Part shown: piece by piece, positions 2,391 through 64,000 of the stretch | Numbering within the stretch: the first letter of the stretch is position 1 | Layout of the letters: every line of letters begins with the position of its first letter | Assembly (NCBI GenBank): GCA_963829055.1 | Contig: CAWHHI010000011.1 | Coordinates: forward strand, 608,001-672,000 | DNA from: an uncultured Gemmatimonadaceae bacterium | Lineage (GTDB): Bacteria; Gemmatimonadota; Gemmatimonadetes; Gemmatimonadales; Gemmatimonadaceae | DNA length: 64,000 nt | Reading direction: 5' to 3' | The notes under the pieces: model-generated | What the model was told of the DNA's origin: nothing | Seen by the model: only the letters and a program-made list of their open reading frames with translations | The model's database searches: none | Program-made: the position numbers and the translations under genes

Positions 2391-3384
2391 ATTTCTTTGG
2401 TGGAGGCGGCGGCGGCGTTAGGCTCGCCTTCCATGCCGCCTCGAGTCCCGGGACGTCGTGCGGCAGTGACTTCGCCTGGGCGAGGGTGGCGCTGAGTGGC
2501 TCGCCGCGCCGCGTTCGGTCGACGACCTGCCTGATGATCCCGCGGCCCTCACGGGCCCACATGAACTCGACCAGGCTCGCGGACTGGAGCGCAGCCAGCG
2601 TCTCCCGCGGTTGTTTCCGGAGGTTCTGCGGCTGAACCGGCCGGCCACGGGAGTCGACCCGACTCTGGTCCATCCCGCTGAGCGCTCCTTCACTCGACAC
2701 ACCGGCAGGAATGGAGGATTCGGGGATCGACATCTGCACGAGCGTGTCGATCGGTACGAGGTCGCCCAGCTGCGACGCGAGCTGCGCGTTGCGATTACGA
2801 GACGACGGGTACCCAGTCACGAGCTGCGTCGCACCGGCGACAATCCAGTCCGGCAGCGGGCTCGCGCCCACCGCCGTATCCGCGCTCAGAACCCACTGCC
2901 GCGCGACCTTGTTACGCACCGACGACACCAGGAACCTCGCGATCGGGAGCGGATTTCCTTCGCGGTCTCGCGGAATGTTCACGTGCTCCCACACGATGAT
3001 CTTGGCTCCCGACGTTCGCACGACGCTATCCATGGCCGCGCTGTCCGCGGGCTGCACGATCAGGCCAACGGCCGTTCTGGGCGGAAGCGTCTGGAAGTAG
3101 CGACGATATGGTAGCTGCGCGTCGTCGAGCAGCAGGAAGATGCCGCCCAGCAGGGAGCGATCGCGTGAGGCGACGACGATGTCGCTGCTGTCCAGCACGG
3201 AGAAATGATCGTTCGCGCCGATCGGCACGACCTTGACGGTCGGCTCGAATCCGGGAATCCCGGTCGTTTCGGGGGGCGGCCCTGAGGAGCACGCCAACGC
3301 GAGTGCCAGCAGGAAGGTCGCGCTCGTCAGGCTCGTGAGGCGTACTACGGGTCGTCGCACCGCGTCCATCTGGATTCCTGGCAT
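2389..3384 (-). CDS. Hypothetical lipoprotein, degenerate peptidase-MA-like domain
   Basis: Lipobox LALAC; PLPDWIVAGA and QSASLVEFM segments recall MA-clan peptidase-like proteins, but there is no HExxH; start uncertain (3384 or 3369). Confidence 0.55.
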   Translation of the reverse strand: MPGIQMDAVRRPVVRLTSLTSATFLLALALACSSGPPPETTGIPGFEPTVKVVPIGANDHFSVLDSSDIVVASRDRSLLGGIFLLLDDAQLPYRRYFQTLPPRTAVGLIVQPADSAAMDSVVRTSGAKIIVWEHVNIPRDREGNPLPIARFLVSSVRNKVARQWVLSADTAVGASPLPDWIVAGATQLVTGYPSSRNRNAQLASQLGDLVPIDTLVQMSIPESSIPAGVSSEGALSGMDQSRVDSRGRPVQPQNLRKQPRETLAALQSASLVEFMWAREGRGIIRQVVDRTRRGEPLSATLAQAKSLPHDVPGLEAAWKASLTPPPPPPKK

Positions 3385-3497
3385 CGCGTTCTCAGTCCGT
3401 TCCGGTTTTGGGTCTGTCGGAAGCGTTCGGGGGGCCGTCCGCCGGGGTCTACTCCCAATGGGCCCGCCGGTTCCCTCGCTTTCCGGCCTCGACAAGT

Positions 3498-4322
3498 CTA
3501 GTGCCTCGGCACCAGTGCGACGACCCGCACGGGACCGCCGGAGCCGCCTTCGATCTTCATGGGCAGCGCGAACAGGAGCGCCCCGGTGGCGGGCAGCAGG
3601 TTCAGGTTCGTGAGGTTCTCGATGCCGGGAACGTCGGCGGCGGCCGCGATGCGGTGGACCATGAAGTCCTGCGACGCGCCGTAGTCGATGGACGCGGCGT
3701 CCACGCCAATGGCAGCCGCACGGCGCTCCTGAATCAGAAGCCTGGCGGCTTCGACGCCGTAGCTCGGGAAGTGGAGCTTGGAGGCGTCGTTTGGCGTGTC
3801 ATCGCCCATGTACGATTTCTTGTCAGGCCAGCGCGTGCTCCATCCGGTGCGCAGCAGCACGATCGTCCCGGGCGGAATGCGGCCGTTCGTGCGCTCGAAC
3901 GCGAGGACGTCGTCACGCGTTAGGCGGTAGTCCTGGTCAGCCCGGGTCCGCGCCGTGACGTCGATCACGACCGCCGGCGCGATGAGCCGGTCGAGCGGCA
4001 CGCGGTCGACGGTGAGGTGCCCTTCGCCGAAGTGGATCGGGGCGTCGAGGTGGGTGCCGCCGTGCTCGGGAGCCGAAAACGCGAACGACGAGTAGAACCA
4101 GCCGCCCGGCGTCTGTCCGTACGACAGGCTGTCGAGCTTGAACGTCGTCGGCGACGTCGGCCAGTAGATGGTCTTCGCGTTGAGCGCGTGCGTGAGATCG
4201 ACCGTTCGATAGCTCCGCAGGTCGAGCGTCTGCGCGCCCACGCCGCGCGCCCACGCCGGTATGACCGACGCGAGCACGAGCGCAACGGCGAACACGCGAG
4301 CCTGACGACGTCCGGGGTTCAT
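3498..4322 (-). CDS. Cyclase family protein (kynurenine formamidase-like) with signal peptide
   Basis: EHGGTHLDAPIHF metal motif, LLRTGW, GVDAASID, IENLTNL, GGSGGPVR. Confidence 0.9.
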   Translation of the reverse strand: MNPGRRQARVFAVALVLASVIPAWARGVGAQTLDLRSYRTVDLTHALNAKTIYWPTSPTTFKLDSLSYGQTPGGWFYSSFAFSAPEHGGTHLDAPIHFGEGHLTVDRVPLDRLIAPAVVIDVTARTRADQDYRLTRDDVLAFERTNGRIPPGTIVLLRTGWSTRWPDKKSYMGDDTPNDASKLHFPSYGVEAARLLIQERRAAAIGVDAASIDYGASQDFMVHRIAAAADVPGIENLTNLNLLPATGALLFALPMKIEGGSGGPVRVVALVPRH

Positions 4323-4629
4323 TGTTTCCTCCCTGTCGTTATCCGGCGCAACCGCGGTCTGCGGTCGCGCTTGTGTGAGCCGCGTCCATGAAGCAAGGGC
4401 GACGCAGCTTGCGGCTGTGCAGCCCATATAAAAGGTATGGCAACCAACGCGGCGCTCAGCGCTAGCGGATATGCGCCGTCGTATCGTGGAGGGCAAGCGC
4501 GAGAAGAGAACACGGAGGCAACACGCACGCGCCACACCGTATCGCAACGCTCGAACGAACCCTCCTAACGGCAGAGGTAGGCACGGTAAGTGGTCGTCCC
4601 GTTGTGATCCCAATGGACTACCTCTTGCT

Positions 4630-4820
4630 CAATGCACGAAGGTGAACAACTCGAACCCGCAGCTCGCGGTTCGGACCGCTGGCACCACGACGAGCCTGAC
4701 CGGCTTTTCGCCGTCGTTCGCCGCGAACGGGACATACACCGTGATCGTTACAGGCACGGCCGCGTCGCCGGTGTTCACGACGCTGAACGATGAGTTCATC
4801 ACGCCGACCAGCGGGTCGGC
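4630..4820 (+). pseudogene. Isolated gene fragment resembling a DUF4397-like beta-sandwich segment
   Basis: CTKVNNSNPQLAVRTAGTTTSLTGFSPSFAANGTYTVIVTGTAASPVFTTLND has coding-like codon usage but no credible start or continuation. Confidence 0.4.
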
Positions 4821-6200: not shown

Positions 6201-8082
6201 ATGTTGAACGTCTCGAAATGCGGCCGAGTGGGCACGCTGCTGTTGGTGGCCGCGCTCTGCGGGTGCACGCGCGAGATCCCGCGGTCTGCCGAAGCCGAAA
6301 CCGCGTCGGCGCGACCTGCCACCACAACCGCCTCCAGCACGCCGTCCGCGACGGGCGCGCGCGCGGAGATCACCATCCCGGGCCGAGACGCTGAGGACGG
6401 GCAGTGGATCCGACCGGCGAAGGACTACGCGAGCACGCGGTTCAGCGGACTCGATCAGATCACGACCGCCAACGCCGCCTCACTCAAGCTCGCGTGGAGC
6501 TTCTCGACCGGCGTGCTGCGCGGGCAGGAGGCGGCGCCGCTCGTCGTGGGCAGCACGATGTACGTCGTGACGCCGTATCCGAACATCCTCTACGCGCTCG
6601 ATCTCTCGAAGCCCGGCGCGCCGGCGAAATGGAAGTACGAGCCGAAGCCGCTCGCCGCCTCGCAGGGCGTCGCGTGCTGCGACGTCGTGAACCGCGGCGC
6701 CGTCTACGACAACGGCAAGATCTTCTACAACACGCTCGACAATCAGACGGTCGCCGTCGACGCGAACACCGGGAAGGAGCTGTGGCGCACGCAGCTCGGT
6801 GACATCAACAACGGCGAGACGATCACGATGGCGCCGCTCGTCGTGAAGGGGAAAGTTCTCGTCGGCAACAGTGGCGGCGAGATGGGTGTGCGCGGATGGC
6901 TCACGGCCCTCGATGCCGGCACCGGCAGAGTGGCGTGGCGCGCGTATCACACCGGGCCCGACTCGCTCGTGCTCATCGGCTCGCGCTTCAAGCCGTTCTA
7001 CAAGAGCGATCAGGGCAAGGACCTGGGCGTGAAGACGTGGCCGCCCGACAAGTGGAAGCAGGGCGGCGCCGGCGCGTGGGGGTGGATCTCGTACGACGCG
7101 GCGCTCGACCTGATCTACTACGGCACGGCCAATCCGGGACCATGGAATCCCGAGCATGCGGCCCGGCGACAACAAGTGGTCGTCGACGACGTTCGCGCGC
7201 GACCCCGATACGGGTGAAGCGGTGTGGGCGTACCAGGTCACGCCGCACGATCTGCACGACTACGACGGCATCAACGAGAGCATCCTGCTCGACCTGCCAT
7301 GGAACGGGCAGCAACGCCGAGTGCTCGTGCGGCCAGAGCGAGATGGCTATGTGTACGTGCAGGACCGCGCGACCGGCGAGGTGCTGGCGGCCGACACGTT
7401 CGGCGTCGTCAACTCCACGTTAGGCGTCGATCTCAAGACGGGCCGTCCGGCGGTCAACAAGGAGAAGGAGCCCATCACCGGACAGGTCGTGCGGATGATC
7501 TGCCCGGCGTCACCGGGTACGAAGGACTGGCAGCCGTCGGCGTTCTCGCCGCGCACGGGGCTCATCTACATCCCGCACCAGAACCTGTGCATGGACGTCG
7601 AGAGCGTGGAGGCGAACTACATCGCCGGCACGCCGTACGTGGGCATGAACGTGAAGATGTACGCCGGACCGGGCGGGCACCGCGGCGAGTTCGACGCGTG
7701 GGACCCGATCGCGCGGAAGAAAGTATGGAGCCTCAAGGAGAACTTCCCGGTCTGGAGCGGAGCGCTCGTGACGGCGGGCGATGTCGCGTTCTACGGCACC
7801 ATGGACGGGTGGTTCAAGGCGGTCGACGCGCGCACCGGCAAGCAACTCTGGCAAACGAAGCTGGGCTCGGGGATCATCGGACAGCCGATCACGTACCGCG
7901 GCCCTGATGGCAAACAGTACGTGGCGATACTCGCCGGCGTCGGTGGTTGGACGGGCGCCATCGTCTCCGGAGGGCTCGACCCGCGTGACTCGAGCGCCGC
8001 GCTCGGGATGGTGAACGCGATGCGCGACCTGCCTAACGCCACGACCAAGGGAGGGACGCTCTACGTCTTCGCGTTGCCATGA
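6201..8082 (+). CDS. xoxF: PQQ-dependent methanol/ethanol dehydrogenase, lanthanide-type (XoxF-like), lipoprotein; frameshift at ~7155
   Basis: Lipobox LCGC; ACCDVVNRG vicinal Cys; GETITMAP; RPGDNKW; PHDLHDYDGINE carries the D-x-D extra Asp; ORFs 6123..7217 and 7156..8082 join after a 1-nt indel. Confidence 0.8.
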
Positions 8083-16979: not shown

Positions 16980-19900
16980 CTACGGTCTCGGCCGTCGGTT
17001 CTGTCCACCCTGCTGCTGTCCCGCGTTCTTGATGCGGTCCGGCAACCGCGCCCACTGCTCCGCCGTCAATATCGCCTCCGCCTCGGCTACCGCCTTCTGG
17101 GCATTTGCTCGGCCCTCCTCGAGTTTCGGCCGCAGCGCGCCGAACAGCGCTCCCGGATCCGGGTTCGCGCCCGCCTTCTCGATCTCCTTTCGCACCTCCT
17201 CCGATACGCGCTGATTTCTCGCATCGAGCGAGTCGCGCAGCGTCGTTAGGCGAACGGTCTGCGAATCCGTGAGCGCGATCGAGTCCTTGCGCGCCAGGAT
17301 CTGCGTGATCGGGTTCGGGAGCACGCGCTCGAATCGCGACGCGAAATTGCCCGGGCCTCCGGGGCCGCCGGTTCGCCCAACGCCGCGTTGCGCGAGTGCG
17401 CCGCGGACGAGATCGCGCGTGCGATCCGGTCCGAGCGTGTAGCGTGCCTGGAAGCCGATCTGAAACGGCAGAACAACGCTTCCCTGCCCACTTCTCTGTG
17501 CGCCGAAGCGCTCGTTCACCTGATAGAGATACCGCTCCGACGACGCGTCGAACCCGCGCACGTACAACAGCGTCGGGTCACCTGCGCGGAAGCTTCCCCA
17601 ACCCTGCAGGTTTTTCTGACCATTGAACAGCTGATCGATGCCGCCGAGGAAGTTGACCGTCGTCACCGAGAGCATGAGGCGTCGGTCGAGTCCGAGCGCG
17701 CGCGGACGGTAGTTCACCTGAAAATCGAGCGACGGCTGCCACGGACCCGTGCACGAGTTGCGACCCGCCACGGCACCGATCTGCGAGCGCAGGCAATCAG
17801 CGACGCTGGAGGAGCTCTTGTCGATGAGCCGCTGCATCGCGTTCGCCACGCCTGTATCGGCCGTGGCGCTCGGGATCGAAAACGAACGCGCGGTCGTTGC
17901 GTGCGCCGTCGGCGTTGATGTCCGACGCGACGATCGGTGTGAACGGCGCACCCGAGGACAGACGCGCAATCGTCGTGAGCTCGAGCCCTTCGTTGAACGG
18001 ATACGTCACCGTCCCCACGATCGAGTGTCGCCGATCGAAGTTGCTCGGCGCCCATTCCCGGACGTTCGGATCGCCGGCGGTTGTTGCCGAAGCGAAGCCA
18101 CCGGTTGCGGAGCCGCCGCCCGCGGAGGATTGATCGCGCGATCGCCCGAGCGTGTACGACACGTTGAAGATCGCGCCCGAGCGCGTGATGCCGTTCGCGC
18201 CCACCGTCACCTGTTCGCTGTGCGACGCGAGATCCGACCCTACCGCGATCACCTGACCATACTGCGGCGCGATTCGGGACGAGGCGATCGACACAACGCC
18301 CGTCGCCGGCACGATGGCCGACGCGTCCGCGAAGACCGGTCGCCCACCTTCCGCCGCGAGTCCGAATCGCGGCGTGACGTTCAGATTCAGATCGCGGAAG
18401 CCGTACTGGTTCACGCCGCGCGCATAGTTCGCGTCCACGGACAGCTGCATGCGATCGAAGACTCGTCGCTGAGCACCTAACGACGCGCGCCATGCGCGCG
18501 GCGCGCCGAAATTCGGGTCGAACACCGTCACGTTAGGCCGAGCAGTCGTGGGAGGCGTGTTGACGGTGCCGCCGGCACAGGTGGCGGGGATGTCCGAGGC
18601 ATCACCCGACAGATTGTCCCAGTTCGGCGCCGGAACGAACGCGCCGATGCAGTAGAGCTGCGATTCGGACAGCAACAGCCCGGTCGCGTTCTGTGCCGCC
18701 GAGTAGAGCGATGTCGGAATGACGCTCCGGAACTCTCCGATGCCACCGCGGATGATGACGGGCGTCGTCTGGGCGGCTGTGGCGTTAGGCCTGGCGCCGT
18801 TTCCACCGCCGGCAGCGCCTCCACCACCTCCTCGCCGTCCGCCGCCAGGACCGCCGCCTCCGAACCCGCCAGCACCAAAGCCCCCGCCCGTTCCGGCTCC
18901 TCCCAACGCCCATGTGAAACCGACGCGCGGGCTCACACGCACGTCGGTCGGGATCTCGTCTGTCCGGTAGCCGAAGAGCTGCTCGACCGCCGGGTTGTAC
19001 GCCGGTGCGCCGTTGAACTGCGATCGCTCGAGGCGTGCGCCGTACGTGAGTTGCAGCGAGCGTGATTGCCGCCACGTGTCACCCATGTACACCGCGGAGT
19101 TGACGCTCGTGCCGCTTCGGATGCGCGGCGACAGGGTGCGGGTGAAGCTCGACGGGCGGTTGGCCTCGAGATCCTCGAGCGAGTTGAACGTGTACGTCCC
19201 AAGGCGGTTCGTCGTCATGTTCTGGTCGAACCGCGATCCGCTGAACAGCAGCCCGAGCTTGATCCGGTGATCGCCGTTGCCGGACAGCCAGGAGAGCTCG
19301 TCCGAGAGGTCGAGGCTCCTCGTGTGCGACCACTGCGGTAGCCCGGCGTTGCCGCCGAACACGAGCGTCGTGATGGACCGCGCATCGGTGAGGTCCGAGT
19401 TCACCTGCACGCGTCCCGCCGGCAGAACGGCGAACGGGTCGGAGTGGCGTTGGTCGGTCTGCCCGTACGCGCGCAGCTCGTTGATGAATCTGCCGGCGAA
19501 GTTCGATGACAGCACCGCCATCACGCCGCCGCCACTGCTCTGCTGGTTTCCGCCCGTCTGCGGGAGCGAGAGTGTGCCGACGCGGGTCGGATCCTGACCG
19601 GTTCCGCGAAAGTCGCCGCGCAGCGTTAGGGTATGCCCATTCGACGCGAGCCAGTCCACGCGCACGAGCGAGGAATACGTATCCGCATCCCGGCTATCGT
19701 CGAGCCCAGTGGTCGTCGAGAGGCCGAAGCCCTGGACGATGGAGAAGAACCGATCGACGGAGTCCTGGCTGACGCCAGCCCGCTCGAGCGTCGCGGCATC
19801 GGCATTCACGAGTGACGGAACGGCGTCGATGCGACGCCTGACCTGCATCGAGCCGAACACGAACAGCTTGTCCTTCACGATGGGTCCACCGAGACCGCCG

Positions 19901-23644: not shown

Positions 23645-24178
23645 ATGGGGCAACCGCGACAATGGCTCGGACGATGGACGGCGCTGACGTGGATCACGGG
23701 ATTCGCGGGACTCGGCGCGGGCGCGCAAGTGCGGTCGAGCCCGGTCGACCTCAGCCGTCCCGTATCCATGGTGGAGCCCGCATCTGGCGACGTTTCCGGG
23801 TCATGGGCCGGGACGTTCAGCCTCGACTCGACGTGGGGGCTCGATCAACGCGCGTCGACGCGGTCCATACCAGCACGACTGCACTTCAATCCGGTCGGTG
23901 ACGCGTCGCCCACCACGTCCAGCGCGCGGTCGGTTCACCCCGGCACATTCGAGATCGACTTCTCGCGTTTCGGGATCACACTCTCGACGCAGGAAGCGCT
24001 CGGCTGGAGCGCGACGCCCGATTCGATGCGCGCGGTGCTCAACCCGACGGTGGACCACGGCCTGGTGGAGGTTCACGGCGTCTTTCGCGGCGAGACAATC
24101 TCCGGCACGTGGAGTTACAAGAGCGACCCCGGCGGGGCGAGCGGCACGTTCGAGGTGAAGCGAGTCCAGTCGCGTTAG
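23645..24178 (+). CDS. Hypothetical secreted beta-rich protein
   Basis: Signal-like N-terminus; DVSGSWAGTF and ISGTWSY...GTFEV strands; start uncertain. Confidence 0.55.
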   Translation: MGQPRQWLGRWTALTWITGFAGLGAGAQVRSSPVDLSRPVSMVEPASGDVSGSWAGTFSLDSTWGLDQRASTRSIPARLHFNPVGDASPTTSSARSVHPGTFEIDFSRFGITLSTQEALGWSATPDSMRAVLNPTVDHGLVEVHGVFRGETISGTWSYKSDPGGASGTFEVKRVQSR

Positions 24179-24189
24179 GCGCACGGAGT

Positions 24190-28650: not shown

Positions 28651-30801
28651 CTATCGCCCCACAGAGATCGTCATTCCCGCATAGACGGTCCGCCCAGGCG
28701 AGGGCTCGAAGTAGCGGCCAGCCGCAGCATTCACCACGATCGACCCCGCATACGCGCGGTCGAACAGATTCGACACACCGAACACCGGCACCAGCGCCAT
28801 CCCCGCAACCGTCACACGCCCACCGATCCGCGCGTTCGCCACCTCCCAACCACCCGCGCGCAGCGTGTTCGCGTCGTCCATGAACATCCCGCCCGCTGTC
28901 TGTCCTTCCACCGTCCCGAACCAGCCGCGCCAGTTGTACGTCACGTAGCCTTGCAACTGCTGGTTAGGCACGCCCGGAATCGTGTTCCCACTGAAGTCGT
29001 TCGCGCCGACGGTGTAGTCCTCGAACGCGAAGTCCGAATAGCTGTACGACGCACCGATCGTCGTCGCGCCTAACGCCGATGCCAGGCCCAGCTCGCCGCC
29101 GCGCCGCCGCGTCGACCCCGCGTTCCGGAAGTACCGCCGCCCCGCCCCGCCCGGCACCTCGAATGGAATGAGCTCGTCCCTGACGCGCGTCGCGAACAGC
29201 GCCGCGTCATAGCGCAGTCTACCGAACGCTACTCCTTTCACCCCCGCCTCGAACGTGGTCGCGTACTGCGGGTCGAGCGTCGGGTTGATCCCCGCGGAGC
29301 CATCGGGCTTGTTCGCGAGCTCCGTCGCCGTCGGCGTCTCGAACGCGGTCGAGAGGTTCGCGTACACGGAGTGCAGCGCGCCGACGCGCGCGACGAGGCC
29401 GACCAGCGGGCTCACCGCGTGCAGCGTGCGCTCGCCCGAGTCGTCCGGATTCGTCGCCGTGATGAGGTGATCGCCGACCCGGAACTGCACGTAGTCGGCG
29501 CGCACGCCTAACGTCAGACGGTAGCGGTCCGAGAATGCGATCTCGTCCCGCACGAACGGCCCGAGCCCCGAGACCCGCTCACGCTGGTCGAGCTGCACCA
29601 CGCCGCGCTCACGCGAGACGACGGGACACGCCGCCGTCGGCTGCGTGAGCGGCGGCACGAAGTTGCAGTTCGCGAAGTTCTTGCGCTCGTCGTCCTGAAA
29701 CTGCGCGTCCATGCCCGCACTCACACGATGGTCGAGCCCGAGGAAGCGAACCGGAACGGTCACGCGCGCGTTTGCACCGGACGTCGTGCGGTCGACATCC
29801 ACGATCGCGAACGTGAGCGGATTGTCGAGCGTGCGCCAACCGAAGTGCGCCGCGGCGGACCACTCCACCCCGCTCGACGAGCGTCGGTTCGCGGTCAGGC
29901 CGAGCTGCGACTGCTGCACCGCCTTGCGCGTCGCCTTCCGGATCTGCGCCGGATCCGCCTGACGCGGATCACTCTTCATCTCGGCCGCCGTGAGCGCGCC
30001 CGGATTCTCCGCCGTCGGCGTGTCGTACCCGGTGTACGTGAGCGCGAGATCGCCGGCCTCGCCCGACAGCATCGCCCGCGCCGTCCCACTCGTGGATTGT
30101 TGCCGAGCGTAGAGGCGGTACCCGTCCTGGTCGGTGCGCGAGAGGTCACCCTGGTACTGAATCGCACCCGCCGTCCCACCGGCAGCGCCCGCCCAACGCT
30201 TCAGGCCATACGAACCGCCAGTCCCCGTCACACGACCCGCGATCGCGTCAGATGGCGGATCCGCCGTGCGAACCTCGACGACTCCGCCCGCCGCGTTTCC
30301 GTACAGAGAGCCCGCGCTCCCACGAATGACCTCGATGCTCCCAACCGACTCGAGATCGAGGTAGTCGATGGGCGTCTGCCCATCGGGTAGCGTGAGCGGA
30401 ATGCCGTCGCGCACCACCCGAACGCCGCGCACGCCGAACGCCGATCGCGCGCCGAAGCCTCGGATGGAGATGCGCGGGTCCTGCGTGGGGTTGCTCCGGT
30501 TGGCAACGGCGAGGCCCGGGATCGCCAGCAGCATCTCGTCGAACGAGACATGACGGAGAGACGGTCGGCCACTGTCCGGCACAATCCGCGAGATCGCGTA
30601 CGGGAGGTCGAGCGTCGGGCGCGCGGCGTCACGCGTGACGGTGACCTGCACGGGCGGCAGCGTCGACGGCCGCGGTCTGGGCGGCGTGGTGTCTTGCTGT
30701 GCGTCGAGGCGGTGCGTGATGCCGACACTCATCGACGCAACACACAGCGCGGTGATGTTGAGCCCCGTGAACCTTCGACCCGCGAACGTCTGTATCGGCA
30801 C
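28651..30801 (-). CDS. TonB-dependent receptor, YncD/PqqU-like
   Basis: RISIRGFGARSAFGVRG..DGIPLTLPDGQ plug; IEVIRG..SLYGNAAGGV; FETPT; C-terminal GSIVVN..GRYFEPSPGR; start uncertain. Confidence 0.85.
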   Translation of the reverse strand: MPIQTFAGRRFTGLNITALCVASMSVGITHRLDAQQDTTPPRPRPSTLPPVQVTVTRDAARPTLDLPYAISRIVPDSGRPSLRHVSFDEMLLAIPGLAVANRSNPTQDPRISIRGFGARSAFGVRGVRVVRDGIPLTLPDGQTPIDYLDLESVGSIEVIRGSAGSLYGNAAGGVVEVRTADPPSDAIAGRVTGTGGSYGLKRWAGAAGGTAGAIQYQGDLSRTDQDGYRLYARQQSTSGTARAMLSGEAGDLALTYTGYDTPTAENPGALTAAEMKSDPRQADPAQIRKATRKAVQQSQLGLTANRRSSSGVEWSAAAHFGWRTLDNPLTFAIVDVDRTTSGANARVTVPVRFLGLDHRVSAGMDAQFQDDERKNFANCNFVPPLTQPTAACPVVSRERGVVQLDQRERVSGLGPFVRDEIAFSDRYRLTLGVRADYVQFRVGDHLITATNPDDSGERTLHAVSPLVGLVARVGALHSVYANLSTAFETPTATELANKPDGSAGINPTLDPQYATTFEAGVKGVAFGRLRYDAALFATRVRDELIPFEVPGGAGRRYFRNAGSTRRRGGELGLASALGATTIGASYSYSDFAFEDYTVGANDFSGNTIPGVPNQQLQGYVTYNWRGWFGTVEGQTAGGMFMDDANTLRAGGWEVANARIGGRVTVAGMALVPVFGVSNLFDRAYAGSIVVNAAAGRYFEPSPGRTVYAGMTISVGR

Positions 30802-31100
30802 GCGATGCCTTGATACTGGTGCAGTGGTATGTCCGCCGAGCACCGATTCCGAACGTTTCTCGACACGTGTTCGAATCGTGTTCAACGCGGGTTCGAGCGC
30901 CGGCGAAGCTGCAGGCGGTCTCGGACCCGTGCAACCCCTGTGCAACCCTGATGCTGGATTGCGGCGGCCGCGCAACTCGGGCTACCCACAGTGTTCAGTG
31001 CGTTCGCCAGGCGCTACAGTATCGAAGTTGCCGTCGCTCACTTTCACCTGTCCGGCCGCGCGCAGCGTGGCAACGCCGGCCCGTACACGCGGAGAACTCG

Positions 31101-31409: not shown

Positions 31410-31469
31410 CATGGGCAGTAGACTGCTCGCATTCGTTGTAGACGTGGCGCAGATCGCTTCCGCTGACGG

Positions 31470-33518: not shown

Positions 33519-33664
33519 GGGCGCTAAACTCGAGTCGGGGCAACACTGACGCTTACCTGACGGCGACCGGCTAGTAGTTCTCCGAGTGTACAGGCCAAAT
33601 CCCCCGTCGTAGCGTAGGTCCATGAGTCGCCTCTCTCTGTACGTGACCGCCCCGCCGTTCATGC

Positions 33665-34453: not shown

Positions 34454-34519
34454 ACGAGACATGCTGGCGATTCCGGGGCGCGGGCCGCATCATCGGCCGG
34501 CCTTCGTCCCGGAGCTCAG

Positions 34520-35725
34520 GTGTCGCGTATCCGATCGAGCATTGCCGCCCTTCTGCTAGCCGCGCCAGTCGCCGCCAGCACGTCCTCGGCGCAGAATGCT
34601 TCGCCTCCAGCCGGTTGGGCGAACTTCACACGTCTGCTCGAGGCATATACGGACAGCGACCACATCGTGGGCGCGAGCGCGTTCGTCATGCGCGATGGCC
34701 GAGTGCTGGCGCGGCACAACGTGGGGTTCGCGGACAAGGCGGCAGGCAAGCGCGTCGATGACCGCTCGATCTTCCACTGGGGATCGGTCACCAAGACGCT
34801 GACTGCAATCTCGATCATGCAGCTTCGCGATCGGGGTAAGCTCTCGCTGGACGACAAGGTCACGCGATGGGTGCCGGAGCTGCGACGGATCCACGACCCG
34901 TACGGCATGATCGACAGCATCACGATACGGATGCTCATGTCGCACTCGGCCGGATTCCGGAACGGGACCTGGCCGTATGGATCGGGCGAGGCATGGGAAC
35001 CGTTCGAGCCCACCGAGTGGGCGCAGCTGGTCGCGATGATGCCGTATCAGCAGTTGCTGTTCAAACCCGGCACGAAGTACAGCTACTCGAATCCGGGGTT
35101 CGTCTATCTCGCTCGGATCATCGAGGCGGTGAGCGGCGATCCCTGGGCGACGTACGTGCAGAAGAACATTTTCTCGCCGCTCGGTCTGGATCGGAGCTAC
35201 TTCGGAACGACGCCGTACTATCTCGCCGCCGACCGATCGCACAACTACTACGTCGCGCACGACTCGGTCTCGCGCCGGGACAGCGTCATCGACAATGGCG
35301 CGGACTTCGATCCGGGCATCACGATCCCGAATGGCGGCTGGAACTCGCCGCTCGATGACCTGGCCACGTATCTCGCGTTTCTGACGAACGCGCCCGGCGG
35401 CCGTCTCCCGAAAGAGCGCTACGACGTGATCCTCAAGCGCGCGTCGCTGGAGGAGATGTGGCGCCCGGTGGTGAATACGAACGGCAACGGTTACGGCTCG
35501 GAGAACGACTGGATGGGGCTCTCGTTCTTCGGCATGAAGTCGGGAGACGTGACGATCCTGGGCCACACGGGAAGCCAGGCGGGGTTCCACTGCTTCACGT
35601 ACTTCGATCCGGTGAAGCGCACGGCGGTGCTGGTGGTGTTCAACACGTCGTCGGAGCGAAGCACCCCGGGCGCGCGTGCGGCACAAAAAGCAATGACGGA
35701 AGCGGCGCTCGGATTACTGAAGTAA
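34520..35725 (+). CDS. Serine hydrolase, class C beta-lactamase/esterase family, secreted
   Basis: SVTK, LMSHSAG, YSYSN, GHTG. Confidence 0.9.
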   Translation: MSRIRSSIAALLLAAPVAASTSSAQNASPPAGWANFTRLLEAYTDSDHIVGASAFVMRDGRVLARHNVGFADKAAGKRVDDRSIFHWGSVTKTLTAISIMQLRDRGKLSLDDKVTRWVPELRRIHDPYGMIDSITIRMLMSHSAGFRNGTWPYGSGEAWEPFEPTEWAQLVAMMPYQQLLFKPGTKYSYSNPGFVYLARIIEAVSGDPWATYVQKNIFSPLGLDRSYFGTTPYYLAADRSHNYYVAHDSVSRRDSVIDNGADFDPGITIPNGGWNSPLDDLATYLAFLTNAPGGRLPKERYDVILKRASLEEMWRPVVNTNGNGYGSENDWMGLSFFGMKSGDVTILGHTGSQAGFHCFTYFDPVKRTAVLVVFNTSSERSTPGARAAQKAMTEAALGLLK

Positions 35726-35736
35726 TGCGAGCACCA

Positions 35737-35993
35737 CGGAAGGAGGAACGGAGCGGAAGGCAGGCGAGACGGCGGAGAAAAGCGTATCATCCCGAGCGCG
35801 GGAGCCCGCGCAGCGGGCAGATGAGGGACCTTCTCGACCGTCATCGTGGCCAATCGCGCCACGATGACAATCACAGAAGGTCCCTCGTCGCTTCGCTCCT
35901 CGGGATGACATGCGCTTCGCTCGGATGGATAACGCTTTTTCTCCGCCATCCGCCTTCCGCCCTCCTCCTTCCGCAGGCCTCCTTCCTCGGCCT
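35737..35993. repeat. Nested inverted repeat: GGAAGGA/GGCGGA-rich outer arms around a family-B doublet (35786-35910)
   Basis: CGGAAGGAGG...GGCGGAGAAAAGCGT versus ACGCTTTTTCTCCGCC...CCTCCTTCCG; inner ATCATCCCGAGCG...GTCATCGTGGC..GCCACGATGAC...CTCGGGATGACA. Confidence 0.85.
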
Positions 35994-35995
35994 CG

Positions 35996-37033
35996 CTAGA
36001 ACCGATACCTCACCGACAGATACGTCGGCTCCATACCGGTCGACGAGGACACCTCGTCGAACAGGCGCGCGAAGTCGATCGCCAGGTTGCCCGAGTCGTA
36101 GCCCACGCCTAACGACGGACCACCGTAGCCGCCCGAGCGCGACGCGTAGCCACCACGGAACAGCAGTCGTCGCCGCCAGCCGAGCTCCGCGCCAACGCGC
36201 GGCGACGGGTCCATGCGTCGGAGCTCGCTCACCATGTCCGCACTGAGCCGAAGCTGCGCGCCGTCCACCATCGCTTCCAGCGCCGAGACGCGCCACTCCA
36301 TCCCGGCCTGCAGGCGGGACGGAAGCTGGTCCGCTTGCGGCTCGTCGTTGACCTGCATCGGAAGGCCCATGTTGCGGACGCTCGCACCGAGCGTGATCGG
36401 AATCTGTGGGTCGAGCGAAAACTGCGCGCCCGCGTCGACCGCGCTCGTGGATGCCATGATGCCCGTTTCGCCCGTACACGGGCCGGTGCAGTCGATCCGC
36501 CACTGCACGAGTTTGTAGCTCAGTCCCACGTTGAGTCGTTCGAGCGCCGCGGCGTACGTCGCCGCGTAGATCAGACTTCGCGGAAGGATCGTGCCGCCTT
36601 CCGCTCCAGACTCGTCCGCGTTGCCTGACGACCCGAAGTCCCGCAGGCTTGCCGAGACGCCGAATGATCCGAGCAGTCGCGAGTGTGCGACGACCGAGAG
36701 GGCGTCGGCCTTGCCGCCGATGCTCTGCGAGTGGTGAATCGCGGCACTGGTGCCCTTCATGCGCGCCAGACCAGACGGGTTCCACCACACGGATTCAGTC
36801 GTGCCGTCCATCGCCATCGCCGCCTGCCCGAGCGCGACGGCCCGCGCGCCGGTGGGCAGCAACAGATCGAGCGCGCCCTCGCCCATGGCCGGGTGTTGCG
36901 CCTCGGTGCGCACCGGCAGAAACGTGGACGCGACGGACGCGACGATCGCGATCCGCGCGCGCAGTCCTCGGTCGAGCGGCTTTCCAAGCGGCTTTGCAAG
37001 CGGCTTTGTACGACGGTGCGGTACCAGCATCAT
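35996..37033 (-). CDS. PorV/PorQ-like (FadL-superfamily) outer-membrane beta-barrel
   Basis: LLLPTGARAVALGQA...VWWNPSGLA N-terminus; alternating beta strands; terminal YRF; start uncertain. Confidence 0.75.
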   Translation of the reverse strand: MMLVPHRRTKPLAKPLGKPLDRGLRARIAIVASVASTFLPVRTEAQHPAMGEGALDLLLPTGARAVALGQAAMAMDGTTESVWWNPSGLARMKGTSAAIHHSQSIGGKADALSVVAHSRLLGSFGVSASLRDFGSSGNADESGAEGGTILPRSLIYAATYAAALERLNVGLSYKLVQWRIDCTGPCTGETGIMASTSAVDAGAQFSLDPQIPITLGASVRNMGLPMQVNDEPQADQLPSRLQAGMEWRVSALEAMVDGAQLRLSADMVSELRRMDPSPRVGAELGWRRRLLFRGGYASRSGGYGGPSLGVGYDSGNLAIDFARLFDEVSSSTGMEPTYLSVRYRF

Positions 37034-58193: not shown

Positions 58194-59870
58194 CGCCTGC
58201 CGTTAGGCAGTCGCCGTCCGTTCGCTACGCGCCCACCGATGAGGTGGATTTCGTCATCGTCGGGGCCGGCGCCGCGGGCGGCGTCATGGCACGTGAGCTC
58301 GCGACGAACGGCTTCCGCGTCGTCGTCCTCGAACAGGGCCCGTACCTGCACGAGACGGACTTCAAGCATGATGAGCTCGCGTCGTTCCAGCGACACCAGC
58401 TCACGAACGACTTCACGCAACAGCCGCAGACCTTCCGGAAGTCCGCCGCCGACAAGGCCGAGCGGCGCGACTATCTCGCGTATGGCCGTATGGTGGGCGG
58501 CGGTAGCGTGCACTTCACCGCGAACTACTGGCGCTTCCACGAAGTCGACTTCGAGGAACGCAGTCGTAACGGCTCCGTGGCCGGCGCGAGCATCGAAGAC
58601 TGGCCGATTCGTTATGCAGACCTCGAGCCCTACTATACGAAAGTCGAATGGGAAGTCGGCGTGAGCGGGCTTGCCGGCGCCAACCCGTTCGATCCGCCAC
58701 GATCGAAGCCGTACCCGCTGCCGCCACTCCCGGTCAAACCGTCGGGCGTCCTGTTCGAGGTCGCGGCCCGGAAGCTGGGCTGGCACGCCGCGCCCGCACC
58801 AATGGCCGTGCTGTCACAGCCGTACCGCGGACGCCCGGCGTGTCAGCACTGCGGATTCTGCGAGTCGTTCGGCTGCGAATGGAAGGCGAAGTCGAGCGCA
58901 CTCGCGACGGTCATCCCGGAAGCCGAACGAACGGGTCGCTGCGAGATCCGACCGAACAGCTACGTGCGCCGCATCCAGACCAACAACAGCGGGCTGGTGA
59001 CGGGCGTCGTCTACTTCGATGGCGCGAAGCGCGAGGTCATGCAGCGCGCGAAGGCCGTCGTCGTCTGCGCGAACGGAGCGGAGACGCCGCGTCTCCTGCT
59101 CATGTCGGCGTCGAATCAGTTTCCGAACGGGCTCGCGAACTCGAGCGGCGCCGTCGGTAAGTACCTCATGTTCAACGGCGGCGCGTTCGCCGGCGGGCTG
59201 TACGAGCACGAGGTCAACGGCCACAAGAGCGTGCAGGTGAGCCGGTACATGCAGGACTTCTATCGGCTCGACAAGAAGTACGGGCTCGCGGGCGGTGGCG
59301 GCATCGACACGCGGTTCGACTGGTATCCGGTCGGCTTCGCGATGGACGCGCTGCCATCCGACGGCCCCCGCTGGGGAGCGGAGTACAAGCGCATGCTCCG
59401 CGAGTACTACACGCGCTCCATGTACGCGCTCGCGCACACGACGTCGCTGCCACAGGAGACGAGCACGATCACGCTCGATCCGGAGCTCGAGGACGCGTGG
59501 GGCCTTCCGGCGATCCGCACGACGTTCACCGAGCACCCGAACGATGTGAAGCTCTACGAGTTCTTCCTCGAACGCTGCGTCGAGCTGCTGGACGCGGCCG
59601 GCGCGAAGCGCACGTGGAAGTTCGGGCTGGACGCGCCGTGGCAGGTCCACTTGTTAGGCACGTGCCGGATGGGCAACGACCCGAAGGCGTCGGTCGTGGA
59701 CAAGTTCCATCGCGCGCACGACGTGGCCGAATCTGTTCATCGTGGACGGGAGCAGCTTCGTCACGTCAGGCACGGGACAGCCGACGATGACGATTCAGGC
59801 GCTGGCATTTCGGGCGGCAGAGGCCATCACAGGAATGGCCAGGCGCGGCGAGATCTCCAGGCGCGCGTAA
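58190..59870 (+). CDS. GMC family FAD oxidoreductase; frameshift at ~59727
   Basis: VGAGAAGG, LEQG, GGGSVHF, CQHCGFC...C, HLLGTCRMG; continues NLFIVDGS...PTMTIQALA in the shifted frame to TAA at 59870. Confidence 0.92.
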
Positions 59871-61652: not shown

Positions 61653-61817
61653 CCGTCGCCAGCCTCGCGTCCACCGGCGGACCGCCGACGAGCCAGCCCC
61701 GACAGCTCGTCCCTAACGCGGACGGGTGGACCCAATGTAACAGCGGTCCGGTCCCTGATGCCTTTCTGGTAGGTGCGGGCCATACCAGTTTCGGCCACCC
61801 CTTATCGGAGCAACCCG

Positions 61818-63375
61818 ATGCCGCCTCGCGCGCGCCGCGGACGCATCCTCGCCGTCGCCATCGACCAGAAGTCGGGGCAGCCGTTGTACCGCCAGATCTA
61901 TAGCCACGTCCGCCAGTGCATCCTCGACGGTCGACTGGCGCCGGGCTCCCGCCTGCCGTCTACGCGACAGCTCGCGGCGGACCTCCGCGTCTCGCGGAGC
62001 ACGGCGGTCCAGGCCTACGAGCAGCTCAGAGCCGAGGGGTACATCGAAGGCCTCGGCGGTGCGGAGACGCGGGTGAGTGGGGCGCTCCCGGATTCGTTCG
62101 TCCGTACCGCCGCCCGCGAAGCCGATCACGCGGTGCCGTTGAGATCGTTGCTGGTGCCGTCCAGCCGTGCTCGCGCGGCGGCCGCGGCCCTCCGAAGAAC
62201 GCCAGCACCCGTCGGCATGGGACCGCGCGCGTTTCGCGCCGGTGTCCCCGCCGTCGACGTGTTTCCCGTGGACACGTGGGGGCGGATCATGGCGCGTCGC
62301 TGGGGGCGAACACCCGCCCGCGATCTCTCCTACGGCGAGCCGTTCGGCTATCGCCCGCTTCGCGAGGCCGTCGCCGACTACCTCCGCGCCGCGCGCGGCG
62401 TCCGATGCACCGCCGATCAGGTGATGATCACGTCCGGCTCGCAGCAGGCGCTCGACCTCACGTTGCGCGTGCTGATCGATCCCGGTGACAAGATCTGGCA
62501 CGAGGACCCGGGGTATCACGGCGCCCGCGGAGCCTTCGTGGCGGCTGGCGCGAACGTCATCCCGGTGCCGGTCGACCAGGATGGGCTGGACGTGATGGCC
62601 GGACGGACGCTGGCCCCGGACGCTCGCCTCGCCTTCGTGACGCCGTCTCGCCAGCTACCCCTCGGCGCGACGATGTCGCTGCCGCGGCGACTCGCGCTGC
62701 TCGAGTGGGCTGCCGCGTCGCGGTCGGCGATCTTCGAGGACGACTACGATAGCGAGTTCCGCTACGCGTCCCGTCCGTTGCCGGCGCTGCAGGGTCTCGA
62801 CCGCGGCGGCTGCGTGCTGTACTCCGGCACGTTCAGCAAGGTCACGTTCCCGTCGATGCGACTCGGCTATCTCGTGGTGCCGACGGCGTTGATCGACGTG
62901 TTCGCCGCGGCGCGACACTTCTGCGACATGCACTCGCCGTTCCTCGAGCAGGCGGTGATGACGGACTTCATCGTCGAGGGACATTTCGAGCGGCACATCA
63001 GGCGCATGCGCGCGATCTACCACGAGCGCCAGGTGCTGCTCGTGAATCTCGCGCGCGAGCGGTTCGGTGGGCTGCTCGATGTCCGTCCCGCGGATGCCGG
63101 GATGACGGTGGTCGGCTGGTTAGGCGGCGGACTCGACGACGTCACGACCACACGCGCGGCCGAGCGTGCGGGATTGCACGTGCTATCCGTTGTCGCCGCT
63201 GTCCGTCCGTCCGATGCCCCCCGCCCTGCTCCTCGGCTACGCCGGCGTGCGCGACGACGAGATCAGGGATGGCGTGAATCGTCTGGCGATCGTGCTCGAG
63301 CAGCTGATGCGGAGCCGCATCGCACCTAACGATTCCGTGCGGCGGATGAGCGCGGTGGGGGCGTCGGTGGCCTGA
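61818..63375 (+). CDS. MocR/GabR family regulator (GntR HTH plus PLP aminotransferase domain); frameshift at ~63190
   Basis: PLYRQIY...LPSTRQLA...VSRSTAVQAYEQL; GSQQAL; EDPGY; EDDYDSEF; GTFSK; LLLGYA. Confidence 0.93.
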
Positions 63376-63399
63376 ACGACACCCGACTTCGTGAGAACC

Positions 63400-64000
63400 C
63401 TACGCCACGTCAGTCGTCGCGGCTGACGCGTGCCACCACGAGAGCACGAGCGTCGAGCCGATGATCGTGACGGCGCCGGCGAGCGTCCACACGTCCGGGA
63501 TCTCGCCGAGGAGCAGCGCGCCCCACACGACCGCGAACGCGACCTGCAGATAGCCGGTCGTCGTCGCGCGCGCGGTCCGCTCGAGCTGGAGCCCGCGCGT
63601 CATGCTCACCTGCGCGAGCTGCGTCGTTATCCCGACGCCGAGCAGCAGCACCCACTCCTACGGCGTTAGGCCACTGCCAGTCCAGCGAGCGCGAACGGCA
63701 GCGACATCGGAACGCTCAGCAGCGGGAGGTAGAACGACGATCACGAGCGGGTGCTCGGCACCGCGCATCTTCCGCACGAGCGTGTACGCGGCGCCGCTGC
63801 AGAGCGCGCCCGAGCAGCGCGATCGCGATGTCCAGCGGGCTGCGGGCGCGGCGACGGCGGCACCGAACAGCCACGACGGGTGCGCGATGAACATGCACGC
63901 CGACGAGGCTCGCCACGAGACAGAGGATCTCTGGCGCGCGAATGAACTCGTCGAGGATGACGGCCGCGAGCAGCGTGGCGAACACGGGATTCATGTTCTG
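63400..64000 (-). CDS. DMT/EamA family transporter, C-terminal part, several indels
   Basis: MNPVFATLLAAVILDE..., SGAAYTLVRKM, AQVSMTRGL...YLQVAFAVVWG..LGEIP. Confidence 0.85.

Follow-up and report, generated by a model that had tools for sequence, protein, structure and literature searches.

A dispersed word in several reading frames

The window, a 64,000-nt stretch of DNA from an uncultured Gemmatimonadaceae bacterium with a GC content of 66.75%, carries 66 copies of the hexamer GTTAGG (CCTAAC in the opposite orientation), dispersed over 2417..63670 on both strands (37 plus, 29 minus) and forming a subset of the 7,103 copies in the genome. Extended to CGTTAGG, the motif occurs 57 times (31 plus, 26 minus), and as the octamer CGTTAGGC 42 times (24 plus, 18 minus). 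CGTTAGG averaged 2.6 copies in 100 dinucleotide-preserving shuffles of the window, with a maximum of 6, and none reached 57. An earlier, sequence-only reading had described a highly iterated motif of about 65 copies; this count holds, the abundance is larger genome-wide, and all 14 of its example coordinates are exact.

Assigned against our own gene calls, the 66 sites fall into several frames, as had been claimed. The commonest is x-Leu-Gly (TTA GGN; 23 sites), exemplified by NCG TTA GGC at 7418..7425 (plus) within ORF 7156-8082; the same ORF contains an antisense CCT AAC (Pro-Asn; 19 sites) at 8031..8038 (minus). Six sites encode x-Leu-Thr (CTA ACN), including an antisense CTA ACG at 2416..2423 (plus) in a minus-strand gene, and three encode Val-Arg (GTT AGG), one of them at 58201..58208 (plus). 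The motif also makes stop codons: TAG in three cases, at 24173..24180 (plus; the stop at 24176-24178 of ORF 23609-24178, already noticed in the earlier reading) and at sites 42845 and 54894 (both minus), and TAA in one, at 63324..63331 (minus), where CC-TAA-C terminates a plus-strand ORF ending at 63329. The remaining 11 sites are intergenic or uncalled. Four reading frames, both orientations and the use as stop codons argue that the pressure acts on DNA rather than on protein.

A rare close pair, CCTAAC...GTTAGG at 18475..18538, has its members 56 bp apart and lies inside the minus-strand ORF 17797-20754, where it encodes Leu-Gly and Pro-Asn; its geometry is like that of an integron attC site, but it sits in coding sequence and we rejected that identity. 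The longest gap without the motif, 29513..36107 (6.6 kb), has a GC content of 65.3%.

Genome-wide abundance

In the genome as a whole (G000), GTTAGG is present at 13.9 times the order-2 Markov expectation (0.91 per kb) and CGTTAGGC, with 5,004 copies, at 49 times (0.64 per kb); CGTTAGG reaches 0.82 per kb. All 20 contigs carry the motif, at 0.75-1.22 per kb. CGTTAGGC is non-palindromic, its reverse complement being GCCTAACG, and the two strands hold 2,547 vs 2,457 copies. Around dif on contig C16 the leading strand has 518 copies vs 439 (54%; controls 48-59%), which is no motif-specific skew beyond the controls; together with the lack of directionality this makes Chi or KOPS unlikely, as the sequence-only reading had argued.

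Five synonymous-codon shuffles of the called CDS yielded 124-151 GTTAGG and 289-329 CCTAAC, against 2,378 and 2,052 observed, and the enrichment claimed from the window persists under both nulls. A codon-pair-preserving null would hold the motif by construction, and sister codon pairs were therefore used in its place: CCT-AAC makes up 1,285 of 3,290 Pro-Asn pairs vs 6 of 2,374 Pro-Lys pairs for its sister CCT-AAG, and TTA-GGN 1,872 of 16,237 Leu-Gly pairs vs 53 of 24,995 Leu-Ala pairs for TTA-GCN. Of the 871 TAA stops called in the genome, 308 have the CC-TAA-C form. The functional word is the 8-mer YGTTAGGY plus the variant CGTTATGC; TGTTAGGC and CGTTATGC are enriched genome-wide, one-off variants are mostly depleted (observed/expected 0.2-0.8), and CGTTAGAC and CGTTGGGC are depleted (0.42 and 0.59). 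A basecalling artefact, which the earlier reading had kept in view, is rejected because 6 of 6 congeneric assemblies (260-1,170 contigs) hold 2,501-5,112 copies and two foreign-looking stretches of the same assembly, of 48.2 kb and 36.7 kb, have 0 copies where 44 and 33 were expected.

Maintenance at silent positions

In orthologs (4D divergence 0.44), TTA is kept in 118 of 147 cases inside the motif vs 4 of 26 outside, and CCT in 58 of 68 vs 30 of 181, an overall codon retention of 80-85% vs 15-17%. The copies lie at synonymous positions and are actively maintained, well above neutral expectation; the earlier reading had suggested a check for such conservation. The word is gained and lost via point changes at silent positions: orthologous sites that lack it have their flanks intact and an ordinary synonymous word between them (GCTCGG 36, GTCAGG 28, GTTCGG 20), and the commonest alternative allele is two changes from the motif.

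Density climbs with gene GC3 from 0.59 to 1.0 per kb across octiles, and no copy lies in either of the two EF-Tu genes or in GroEL, DnaK, RecA or S12. Pro-Asn-type peptides are doubled; PN[GAVDE] occurs at 1.02 per 1,000 aa (1.6 in genome G014) vs 0.50 in low-motif relatives, a set enriched for one gene neighbourhood, and the reversed control gave 0.63/0.51/0.49.

Self-avoidance and a GC halo

Pro-Asn-G.. positions are occupied in 13 of 68 cases with a neighbour closer than 50 bp vs 264 of 367 at 400-600 bp, and [ASTP]-Leu-Gly positions in 11 of 341 vs 359 of 953. A logistic fit over 14,271 eligible positions shows that each neighbour cuts the log-odds of occupancy by 2.8·exp(-d/140 bp). The exponential kernel (LL -6582.6, 140 bp, coefficient -2.82±0.11) is better than Gaussian (-6601.8), triangular (-6608.4) and box (-6687.6) kernels; it is symmetric, with no directionality of the neighbour effect, which is the same in four geometries (-1.86, -1.87, -2.03, -2.03). 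The word is orientation-blind, and its value drops exponentially with a neighbouring copy, over about 140 bp on each side. Four unrelated control hexamers have no short-range deficit, and G014 is also under-dispersed (5 gaps <50 bp vs 28 expected). Among about 7,080 gaps, inverted neighbours within 30 bp of each other are convergent in 10 cases and divergent in 4. Where a site has been lost, compensatory gain nearby is weak: 31 pairs lie within 200 bp, where 23.3 were expected (P=0.023).

Occupied sites are flanked by a symmetric halo of silent-site GC, +1.4 to +2.5 points within about 85 bp, and the halo at matched empty Leu-Gly sites is about 0. At lineage-private sites, the causal test, it is +1.35±1.04 points.

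Distribution in relatives, a second phylum and phages

At least 400 copies are present in 16 of 400 genomes of the phylum, and the motif is patchy and polyphyletic within Gemmatimonadales. Across genomes CGTTAGGC density ranges continuously from under 0.01 to 1.25 per kb; within genus g40, three genomes hold 3,479-4,141 copies and one holds 66. CGTTAGG reaches about 1.85 per kb in G014. The complete genome G300 carries the motif on all four replicons, including one of 21 kb (20 copies in 20 kb). Low-motif genomes contain a background of 24 GTTAGG in 1.16 Mb, with no substitute over-represented word in those 1.16 Mb.

Contigs of Chthoniobacterales (Verrucomicrobiota) carry the same core as a TCGTTAGGC dialect, with T at -2 in 52 of 60 vs 30% in G000. 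Tailed phages carry it too, at eight loci. Phage contigs G414 and G415 hold 2.3 and 3.3 CGTTAGG per kb, densities biased upward by the way the contigs were found; G417, 98% complete, has 0.77 per kb and no integrase among the 28 ORFs scanned. The earlier analogy to an uptake or HIP1-like signal stands for most tested features, but the signal is not lineage-specific in any simple sense, being polyphyletic and present in Verrucomicrobiota contigs and phages. In abundant soil bacteria the motif alters which codons and stop codons are used and which peptides are encoded, and it is a marker of host range that can serve binning and the prediction of phage hosts.

Comparison with known genome words and a possible transmission tag

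Few hyper-abundant genome words of this class have been described (DUS, USS, HIP1), and it has long been asked why they exist. The motif resembles DUS of Neisseriaceae and USS of Pasteurellaceae, as portrayed in two accounts (PMC2817400, PMC2397512), in being non-palindromic, present about once per kb without orientation bias, conserved beyond its flanks and scarcer in recently acquired and constrained genes. It also doubles encoded peptides and has flank dialects; uptake sequences are reported to raise the peptides that they encode (PMC2817400) and DUS to have dialects (PMC3630211). Unlike DUS and USS, this word is 8 bp long, uses the rarest codons, forms almost no inverted terminator pairs, reaches about 140 bp, is polyphyletic and occurs in two phyla as well as in phages; unlike DUS dialects, it is not confined to one clade, occurring in Gemmatimonadota and Chthoniobacterales. 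With HIP1 of cyanobacteria (GCGATCGC), as characterized in PMC13756078 and PMC4390886, it shares octamer length, a density of up to >1 per kb, mainly coding location and silent-site conservation. HIP1 is likewise patchy among relatives, and its function is described as unsettled; evidence ties it to transformation (PMC13756078, 10.1101/2024.09.10.611283), which it is reported to increase through uptake and/or recombination (10.1101/2024.09.10.611283). Unlike HIP1, the motif is not a palindrome, and its AT-containing core costs rare codons.

Our best reading, held tentatively, is a tag of the DUS/HIP1 kind, through which short-tract recombination or transformation would favour the DNA that bears it. 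CGTTAGGC (YGTTAGGY plus CGTTATGC) would act in cis, giving the surrounding DNA a transmission advantage at uptake or recombination of homologous DNA. A putative sequence-specific reader would bind the word on donor DNA and promote its uptake, survival or strand invasion along short tracts (a few hundred bp) with geometrically distributed lengths, and tag-bearing alleles would convert tag-less ones by molecular drive. A second tag within one tract would add little, which would lead to self-avoidance, and GC-biased conversion in the tracts would lead to the halo. The reader, or its altered specificity, may have been repeatedly gained and lost, with a probable transfer from one soil phylum to another; the tag would enter plasmids and temperate phages during their residence in a host.

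Several observations count against a transmission tag. Competence machinery is present, in keeping with such a tag (ComEC in 5 of 5 genomes, ComEA-type HhH (HhH_3) in 59 of 59 and the DprA motif in G000), but it does not separate high from low, since low-motif genomes have competence genes to the same extent. The 140-bp reach is far below the tract lengths reported in DUS/USS species, 1.1-1.7 kb for Neisseria in a paper that argues for a link between tag spacing and tract length (PMC2397512) and 6.9 kb for Haemophilus. The densities of phages G414 and G415, above those of G000 and G014 though biased upward, and that of G417, with no integrase among its 28 scanned ORFs, are poorly explained by uptake-only drive. 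There are next to none of the inverted terminator pairs that DUS typically form, and compensatory gain near lost sites is weak. One word common to two phyla defeats a species-barrier function.

We consider rather unlikely the bolder proposal that one horizontally mobile reader, with the specificity of the word that ends integron cassettes, drove it independently to about one per kb in several soil lineages of two phyla and in plasmids and phages, as a shared cross-phylum exchange or handling tag of ~140-bp reach. If true, this would be the first genome tag common to two phyla and would explain the convergence of attC cores on GTTAGGC. The motif offers what DUS, USS and HIP1 lack, namely many independent gains and losses, a within-genus contrast, a second phylum, phages and a measurable interaction length, so that the putative reader should be findable by phylogenetic profiling and drive testable against selection. 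It may also be key to transforming Gemmatimonadota and Chthoniobacterales.

Alternative explanations

The main rival to a transmission tag, a serious but doubtful one, is a site at which a cytoplasmic protein, either a DNA-binding enzyme or a nucleoid protein, would load and then slide or spread over about 140 bp in both directions. Such sites would benefit any DNA in the cell (damage repair, desiccation protection, supercoil relief, chromosome architecture) and be selected directly, with diminishing returns, and the halo would come from a preference in the flanks or from GC-to-AT lesions being fewer. Sliding with a constant off-rate also predicts the symmetric exponential kernel, the presence of the motif on all four G300 replicons and at eight phage loci fits, and near shared sites W/S exchanges are a little less frequent (0.172 vs about 0.19). 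Stress-type genes co-vary loosely with the motif (Ku in 25 of 26 high-motif vs 27 of 40 low-motif genomes, TopIB in 16 of 26 vs 13 of 40), with kinship and habitat as confounders; however, both occur in many low-motif genomes, TopIB is missing from 10 of 26 high-motif ones, and none of the candidates tested (IntI, methyltransferases, AddAB, Ku, TopIB, ComEA) tracks the motif. Gaps of 2-7 kb are common and the next-site hazard does not rise with gap length; coverage is therefore not required. Neither 10.5-bp phasing nor a second box was seen in the flanks, and the sites keep no set distance from starts.

Neutral drive by motif-directed mismatch repair, Elhai's model for HIP1 (PMC4390886), in which a methyl mark on CCTAAC would steer repair toward the motif, appears improbable. 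An order-wide Eco57I/MmeI-like adenine methyltransferase and its SNF2 neighbour could write the mark and a patchy second factor read it. The site is non-palindromic and has a penultimate A, as suits an MmeI-type enzyme. The methyltransferase-SNF2 pair is present in all high-motif genomes, one-off variants are depleted, and a neutral process would hit phages and plasmids too. Against this, our survey, which covered three Pfam families in 5 high-motif genomes plus this shared methyltransferase in 73 genomes, found the latter in 73 of 73, high and low, with no alignment column splitting the two; PF01555 is present in 2 of 5 and PF00145 in 0 of 5 high-motif genomes, neither in G000 or the complete G300. 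Unlike HIP1, the motif thus has no co-occurring cognate methyltransferase in this survey. No alternative over-represented word shows up in 1.16 Mb of low-motif genomes, and the allele most often seen in place of the motif differs from it by two changes. 4D divergence does not vary with the distance to shared sites, being 0.445 at 9-50 bp and 0.442 beyond 1 kb; no protected patch therefore explains self-avoidance. The modification- or repair-driven motif suggested in the sequence-only reading gains no support here, as no methyltransferase in this survey discriminates and the substitution rate is not lowered beside sites.

That the word marks self DNA at a nuclease checkpoint (Chi-like or 'missing-self' defence), with DNA that has no tag nearby being degraded and phages mimicking the tag, is very unlikely. 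Like Chi (RecBCD/AddAB), the motif is a non-palindromic over-represented octamer found in phages too; its distribution is patchy, as for defence genes, and in the structural genes of the two densest phages the tags are dense and evenly spaced (0 gaps <50 bp vs 9.5 expected). Unlike Chi, it has neither directionality nor replichore skew beyond controls, and AddAB-type nuclease domains occur in 5 of 26 high-motif vs 16 of 40 low-motif genomes and are absent from the complete, high-motif G300; PF12705 had no match in G300, G014, G236, G293 or G397. PglZ matches are ORFs of 519-604 aa, and the one in G000 starts like a response regulator and lacks BREX neighbours. At the low-genome background of 24 GTTAGG in 1.16 Mb, a tag-demanding system could not be acquired without killing the host.

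Least likely of all is spread or selection of the word as an integron attC core (GTTRRRY, inverse RYYYAAC) via integron-integrase activity: its letters are identical to the commonest R' box in these lineages, CGTTAGGC, with R'' GCCTAAC(A/G), the enriched TGTTAGGC and CGTTATGC are also attC boxes, most copies in low-motif relatives are attC cores of cassette arrays, G000 has an integron and IntI is reported to act on transforming ssDNA (PMC12614218), but IntI occurs in 21 of 26 high-motif vs 31 of 40 low-motif genomes, is scattered over the tree in the former and has a genomic target consensus given as only GWT (10.1101/2022.09.11.507474), CGTTAGAC and CGTTGGGC, likewise variants of attC, are under-represented in the genome, and the dispersed copies are single, unpaired, self-avoiding, in coding frames and derived from silent point changes, not crossover scars. 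R''-then-R' pairs are depleted like all other pairs, the attC-type pairs within 200 bp numbering 128 genome-wide, below expectation. True attC sites in G000 lie only near intI on contig C20, plus one on C9.

Abundance and sequence of the motif

The sequence-only reading had counted by eye about 65 copies of GTTAGG/CCTAAC in the window, about 56 of them CGTTAGG. Our count in the window (66.75% GC) gave 66 (37 plus, 29 minus) and 57, respectively, together with 42 copies of the octamer CGTTAGGC, and all 14 example positions were correct. Shuffles of the window contained on average 2.6 copies of CGTTAGG, and none of 100 reached 57. Codons accommodate 51 of the 66 sites (23 Leu-Gly, 19 Pro-Asn, 6 Leu-Thr, and 3 Val-Arg), 4 provide stops, and the other 11 fall between genes or in uncalled sequence; genes were called with our own hexamer caller on the source genome G000 (6,839 genes covering 72% of bases, with starts placed late). 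The claimed use of several frames, stop included, holds for four frames and both orientations, which rules out a peptide- or RNA-level cause. Three parts of the window (40094-42214, 47103-48872, and 50644-53721) belong to multi-hit families with many congener paralogs, which fits expanded kinase and transporter families.

G000 (7.78 Mb, 20 contigs) carries 7,103 copies of GTTAGG and 5,004 of CGTTAGGC. In the genome-wide k-mer check that had been proposed, CGTTAGGC is the top 8-mer, at 49 times its order-2 Markov expectation. At position –1, 90% of copies have C and 6.5% T; at +6, 79% have C and 12% T. Among core variants, only CGTTATGC (7.7-fold) and CGTCAGGC (2.1-fold) exceed expectation; the others lie at 0.2–0.8. 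We defined the functional class, YGTTAGGY plus one variant, by the spacing rule described below because only some variants obey it: CGTTATGC, TGTTAGGC, CGTTAGGT, and CGTTAGGG do, CGTCAGGC and CGTTCGGC do not. Coding sequences contain 2,378 GTTAGG versus 124–151 in synonymous shuffles and 2,052 CCTAAC versus 289–329. Of ~2,670 TTA codons, 1,872 stand ahead of Gly, and 308 of 871 TAA stops have the form CC-TAA-C.

Leading-strand skew is a feature of Chi. The little skew noted earlier was borne out: 54% of copies on the terminus contig are leading-strand, with four control words at 48–59%. Density is mostly 0.5–0.8 per kb on the terminus-bearing contig C16 and 1.07 on C20. Spacers show a mild 3' excess (convergent 1.85, tandem 1.55, and divergent 1.13 per kb; coding sequence 0.79). 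A promoter or terminator element was rejected, as copies show no preferred position ahead of 2,421 starts. Neither a second box nor helical phasing was found around motif sites, and close clusters, considered as flags of autoregulation, gave no candidate gene.

Retention and turnover of sites

G000 was aligned to five congeners of 76–81% identity, giving 179 shared motif sites; a further 159 occur only in G000 and 111 only in the other genome. The conservation anticipated at synonymous positions is evident: at codon triplets with unchanged amino acids, TTA is kept in 118 of 147 cases in the motif versus 4 of 26 outside, and CCT in 58 of 68 versus 30 of 181, with a weaker effect for CTA (19/39), GTT (5/12), and AGG (6/15). 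Non-motif alleles at orthologous sites are the usual codons and the flanks are unchanged. Sites turn over by silent point changes and are strongly retained. Silent divergence is flat near shared sites (0.445 vs 0.442). Motif density follows gene GC3, climbing from 0.59 to 1.0 per kb. No copy lies in six highly expressed genes, while rpoB, rpoC, mutS, uvrB, and smc contain 2–4 each. PN[GAVDE] peptides are twice as frequent in G000, and three times in the motif-rich genome G014, as in low-motif relatives; the reversed peptide has no such excess.

An artefact was rejected as the source of the motif. Two stretches near contig starts, G000:C6:6860-55030 and G000:C11:7385-44050, have outlying tetranucleotide profiles and housekeeping genes that are second copies (26–60% identity), with 0 motif copies in 85 kb. 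They are probably foreign sequence merged into the assembly, and they act as a control, within the genome itself, against basecalling as the cause; the motif makes a sensitive marker of contamination. Among contigs of four runs with 98–99% identity over motif sites, 0 of 40 listed differences fall inside the motif; with a further 2,076 differences beyond those 40, the sample is too small to serve as a test.

Self-avoidance and a GC halo

Motif copies avoid each other. Their pair correlation is 0.21–0.25 below 100 bp and recovers to ~0.9 by 350 bp. Over the 14,271 positions at which the encoded protein allows a motif, occupancy log-odds drop by 2.82·exp(–d/140 bp) for each neighbour, equally for upstream, downstream, same-orientation, and opposite-orientation neighbours. 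This exponential kernel outperforms Gaussian, triangular, and box kernels by 19–105 log units; the Gaussian 'footprint', suggested by the raw pair correlation, was beaten once spacers were excluded. Occupancy beside another copy is 13/68 versus a sister-pair background of 6/2,374, still far above background, which argues for a diminishing return and not a prohibition. The hazard of the next site has a plateau of 1.1–1.2 per kb and declines past 1.5 kb; long gaps are therefore tolerated.

The orientation-blind exponential saturation over ~140 bp is accompanied by a GC halo. Within ~85 bp of occupied positions, fourfold-site GC exceeds the gene mean by 1.4–2.5 points. Codons ending in A or T are reduced, with one exception. 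Matched empty Leu-Gly positions lack the halo; empty Pro-Asn positions are noisy. At 369 private sites, which bear on whether the motif itself may produce the halo, the GC difference is +1.35±1.04 points.

Distribution among genomes, phages, and phyla

The motif is present on every replicon type and in two phyla. At least 345 copies of CGTTAGGC occur in 9 of 30 relatives and at least 400 in 16 of 400 genomes of a phylum-wide sample, tallies that include the unpublished genomes G013, G079, G118, and G199 as low-count rows only. The 16 comprise 12 of 93 Gemmatimonadaceae and 4 of 166 members of a second family; none of 136 sampled genomes outside the order reaches 400. Within genus g40, copy numbers are 3,479–4,141 in three genomes and 66 in one. 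A quick tree built from one universal single-copy protein (24 rows without G000; 7 of 21 inner branches well supported) shows high genomes intermixed with low ones. The complete genome G300 carries the word on all four replicons. In 1.16 Mb of low-motif family DNA, GTTAGG occurs 24 times and no substitute word is over-represented. At loci L057-L060 of G289, the low member of g40, a word around AAAGCAG recurs 34 times in 79 kb, against an expectation of 3.4, and is probably a local repeat.

Pair-pattern scans of IMG/VR yielded 121 and 48 stretches, mostly chance pairs; most viral and several metagenome matches (e.g. L153, L377) were set aside as chance pairs or attC arrays. Nine dense viral loci, from eight records, use the motif in the same frames as G000, and their products are phage proteins (terminase, portal, capsid, tail, or others). 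In whole phage records, CGTTAGG numbers 39 (17.0 kb), 26 (7.8 kb), 27 (25.5 kb), 34 (44.1 kb), and 87 (82.1 kb), against 2–10 for reversed-word controls; selection of the records for a close motif pair biases these densities upward. Phage G416 is Mu-like; G418 has an integrase, near which lies a 46-bp stretch sharing 97.8% identity with the 3' terminus of a tRNA gene of G000. A tail-module spacer of G418 (L159:12571-12607) holds four tandem tags with a 10-bp period.

A JGI pair-pattern scan returned 119 stretches. Proteins of L357, L370, L380, and L390 cluster at 90% with Chthoniobacterales proteins, and L406 was placed in that order by gene content alone; on all five the word is dispersed in housekeeping genes. 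L357, L370, L380, and L406 contain 49 CGTTAGG in 51 kb versus 2.8 expected (8 of the 49 are seed pairs), with T at –2 in 52 of 60 cases. The evidence for Verrucomicrobiota is at the level of contigs.

Possible mechanisms and related systems

We tentatively favor a tag that would tip homologous exchange over short tracts toward the DNA carrying it; given tracts of geometric length and GC-biased conversion, it could account for retention, turnover, saturation, the halo, and the presence on all replicons and in two phyla. A rival reading, that a cytoplasmic protein uses the word as its loading site and acts ~140 bp to either side, would explain the findings nearly as well and copes better with the phages; we consider it somewhat unlikely. 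Motif-directed repair fails a test and is improbable; a nuclease self-mark, which also fails one, is very improbable.

The tag works most like DUS/USS and HIP1. Unlike DUS/USS, it has almost no terminator pairs and no clade confinement; unlike HIP1, it is not palindromic, and no cognate methyltransferase was found among the families searched. As a tag it belongs with DUS and HIP1, but its spread over two phyla is unusual. Published work was consulted alongside the analysis (PMC13756078; 10.1101/2024.09.10.611283; PMC3630211; PMC12614218; PMC2397512; PMC4390886; PMC7811141; PMC2817400; 10.1101/2022.09.11.507474; PMC8919816; PMC13340088; 10.64898/2026.06.24.734251). A literature search, with most subscription papers and REBASE outside its scope, found neither CGTTAGGC nor GCCTAACG as whole words. 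Searches for Gemmatimonads joined with over-represented octamers or HIP1, for CCTAAC as a methylation motif, and for such repeats in the Gemmatirosa literature found none. The word is absent from the main text of three methylome papers that mention the phylum, whose motif tables would be in supplements. The motif is a real, strongly maintained, and apparently undescribed genome tag.

Candidates for a reader

A hypothesis-led search through a dozen families found no reader of the motif, a lack that says little given this design. Co-occurrence with a methyltransferase, proposed by the sequence-only reading, was not found: PF01555, PF02384, and PF00145 were rejected, PF01555 and PF00145 failing to discriminate. 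Enzymes of the MmeI type suit non-palindromic sites with an A as the penultimate base. An Eco57I/MmeI-like adenine methyltransferase (~1,070 aa), single-copy and followed by an SNF2 helicase, at G000:C8:73545-78317 (L073; the G000 copy frameshifted in the assembly), looked promising in five high genomes, but orthologs (L067-L070, L074-L093, L214-L293) with a conserved C-terminal region occur in 73/73 Gemmatimonadales genomes tested and lack group-specific residues. The pair is order-wide and vertically kept; the best 120 of 2,135 methyltransferase homologs bear only Gemmatimonadota names.

AddAB, PglZ, Ku, ComEA, TopIB, and GIY-YIG do not discriminate; counts of 26 high versus 40 low genomes leave out 7 intermediates of the 73. 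The tilt of Ku and TopIB toward high genomes probably stems from habitat and kinship. G000 has two type IB topoisomerase genes, at C4:50277-51404 and, close to gyrB, C19:85120-85710; all seven genomes of its genus have two, and most have two Ku loci. A Xer/dif half-site was rejected: the dif-like site, at the GC-skew switch on C16 near 560.8 kb (G000:C16 near 560800) and ~19 kb from a xer gene, contains no copy of the motif, and full tyrosine recombinases in G000 number only three.

Coincidence with integron sites

The few copies in low-motif relatives sit in cassette arrays as GCCTAAC...CGTTAGGC attC ends. G000 has a chromosomal integron at C20:163000-209000 (L004), with intI and scattered attC sites, and a second, cut intI at C4:2850-3239 (L005), at a probable chimeric junction. 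The inverse core of attC is GCCTAACG in the high-motif G000 and G300 and GCCTAACA in most low-motif relatives. The match of attC core and motif may reflect a common reader, or chance. Integrase action, the least probable explanation, fails a test, and integrase catalysis is unlikely to have written the motif. IntI is present in 21 of the 26 high and 31 of the 40 low genomes, and neither its tree nor its residues group the high genomes. Two common attC variants are depleted genome-wide in G000, attC-like pairs are not enriched there, and no standalone IntI N-terminal domain is evident in 5 high genomes. L377 is a 57%-GC cassette array with the full tag at both ends of its attC sites.
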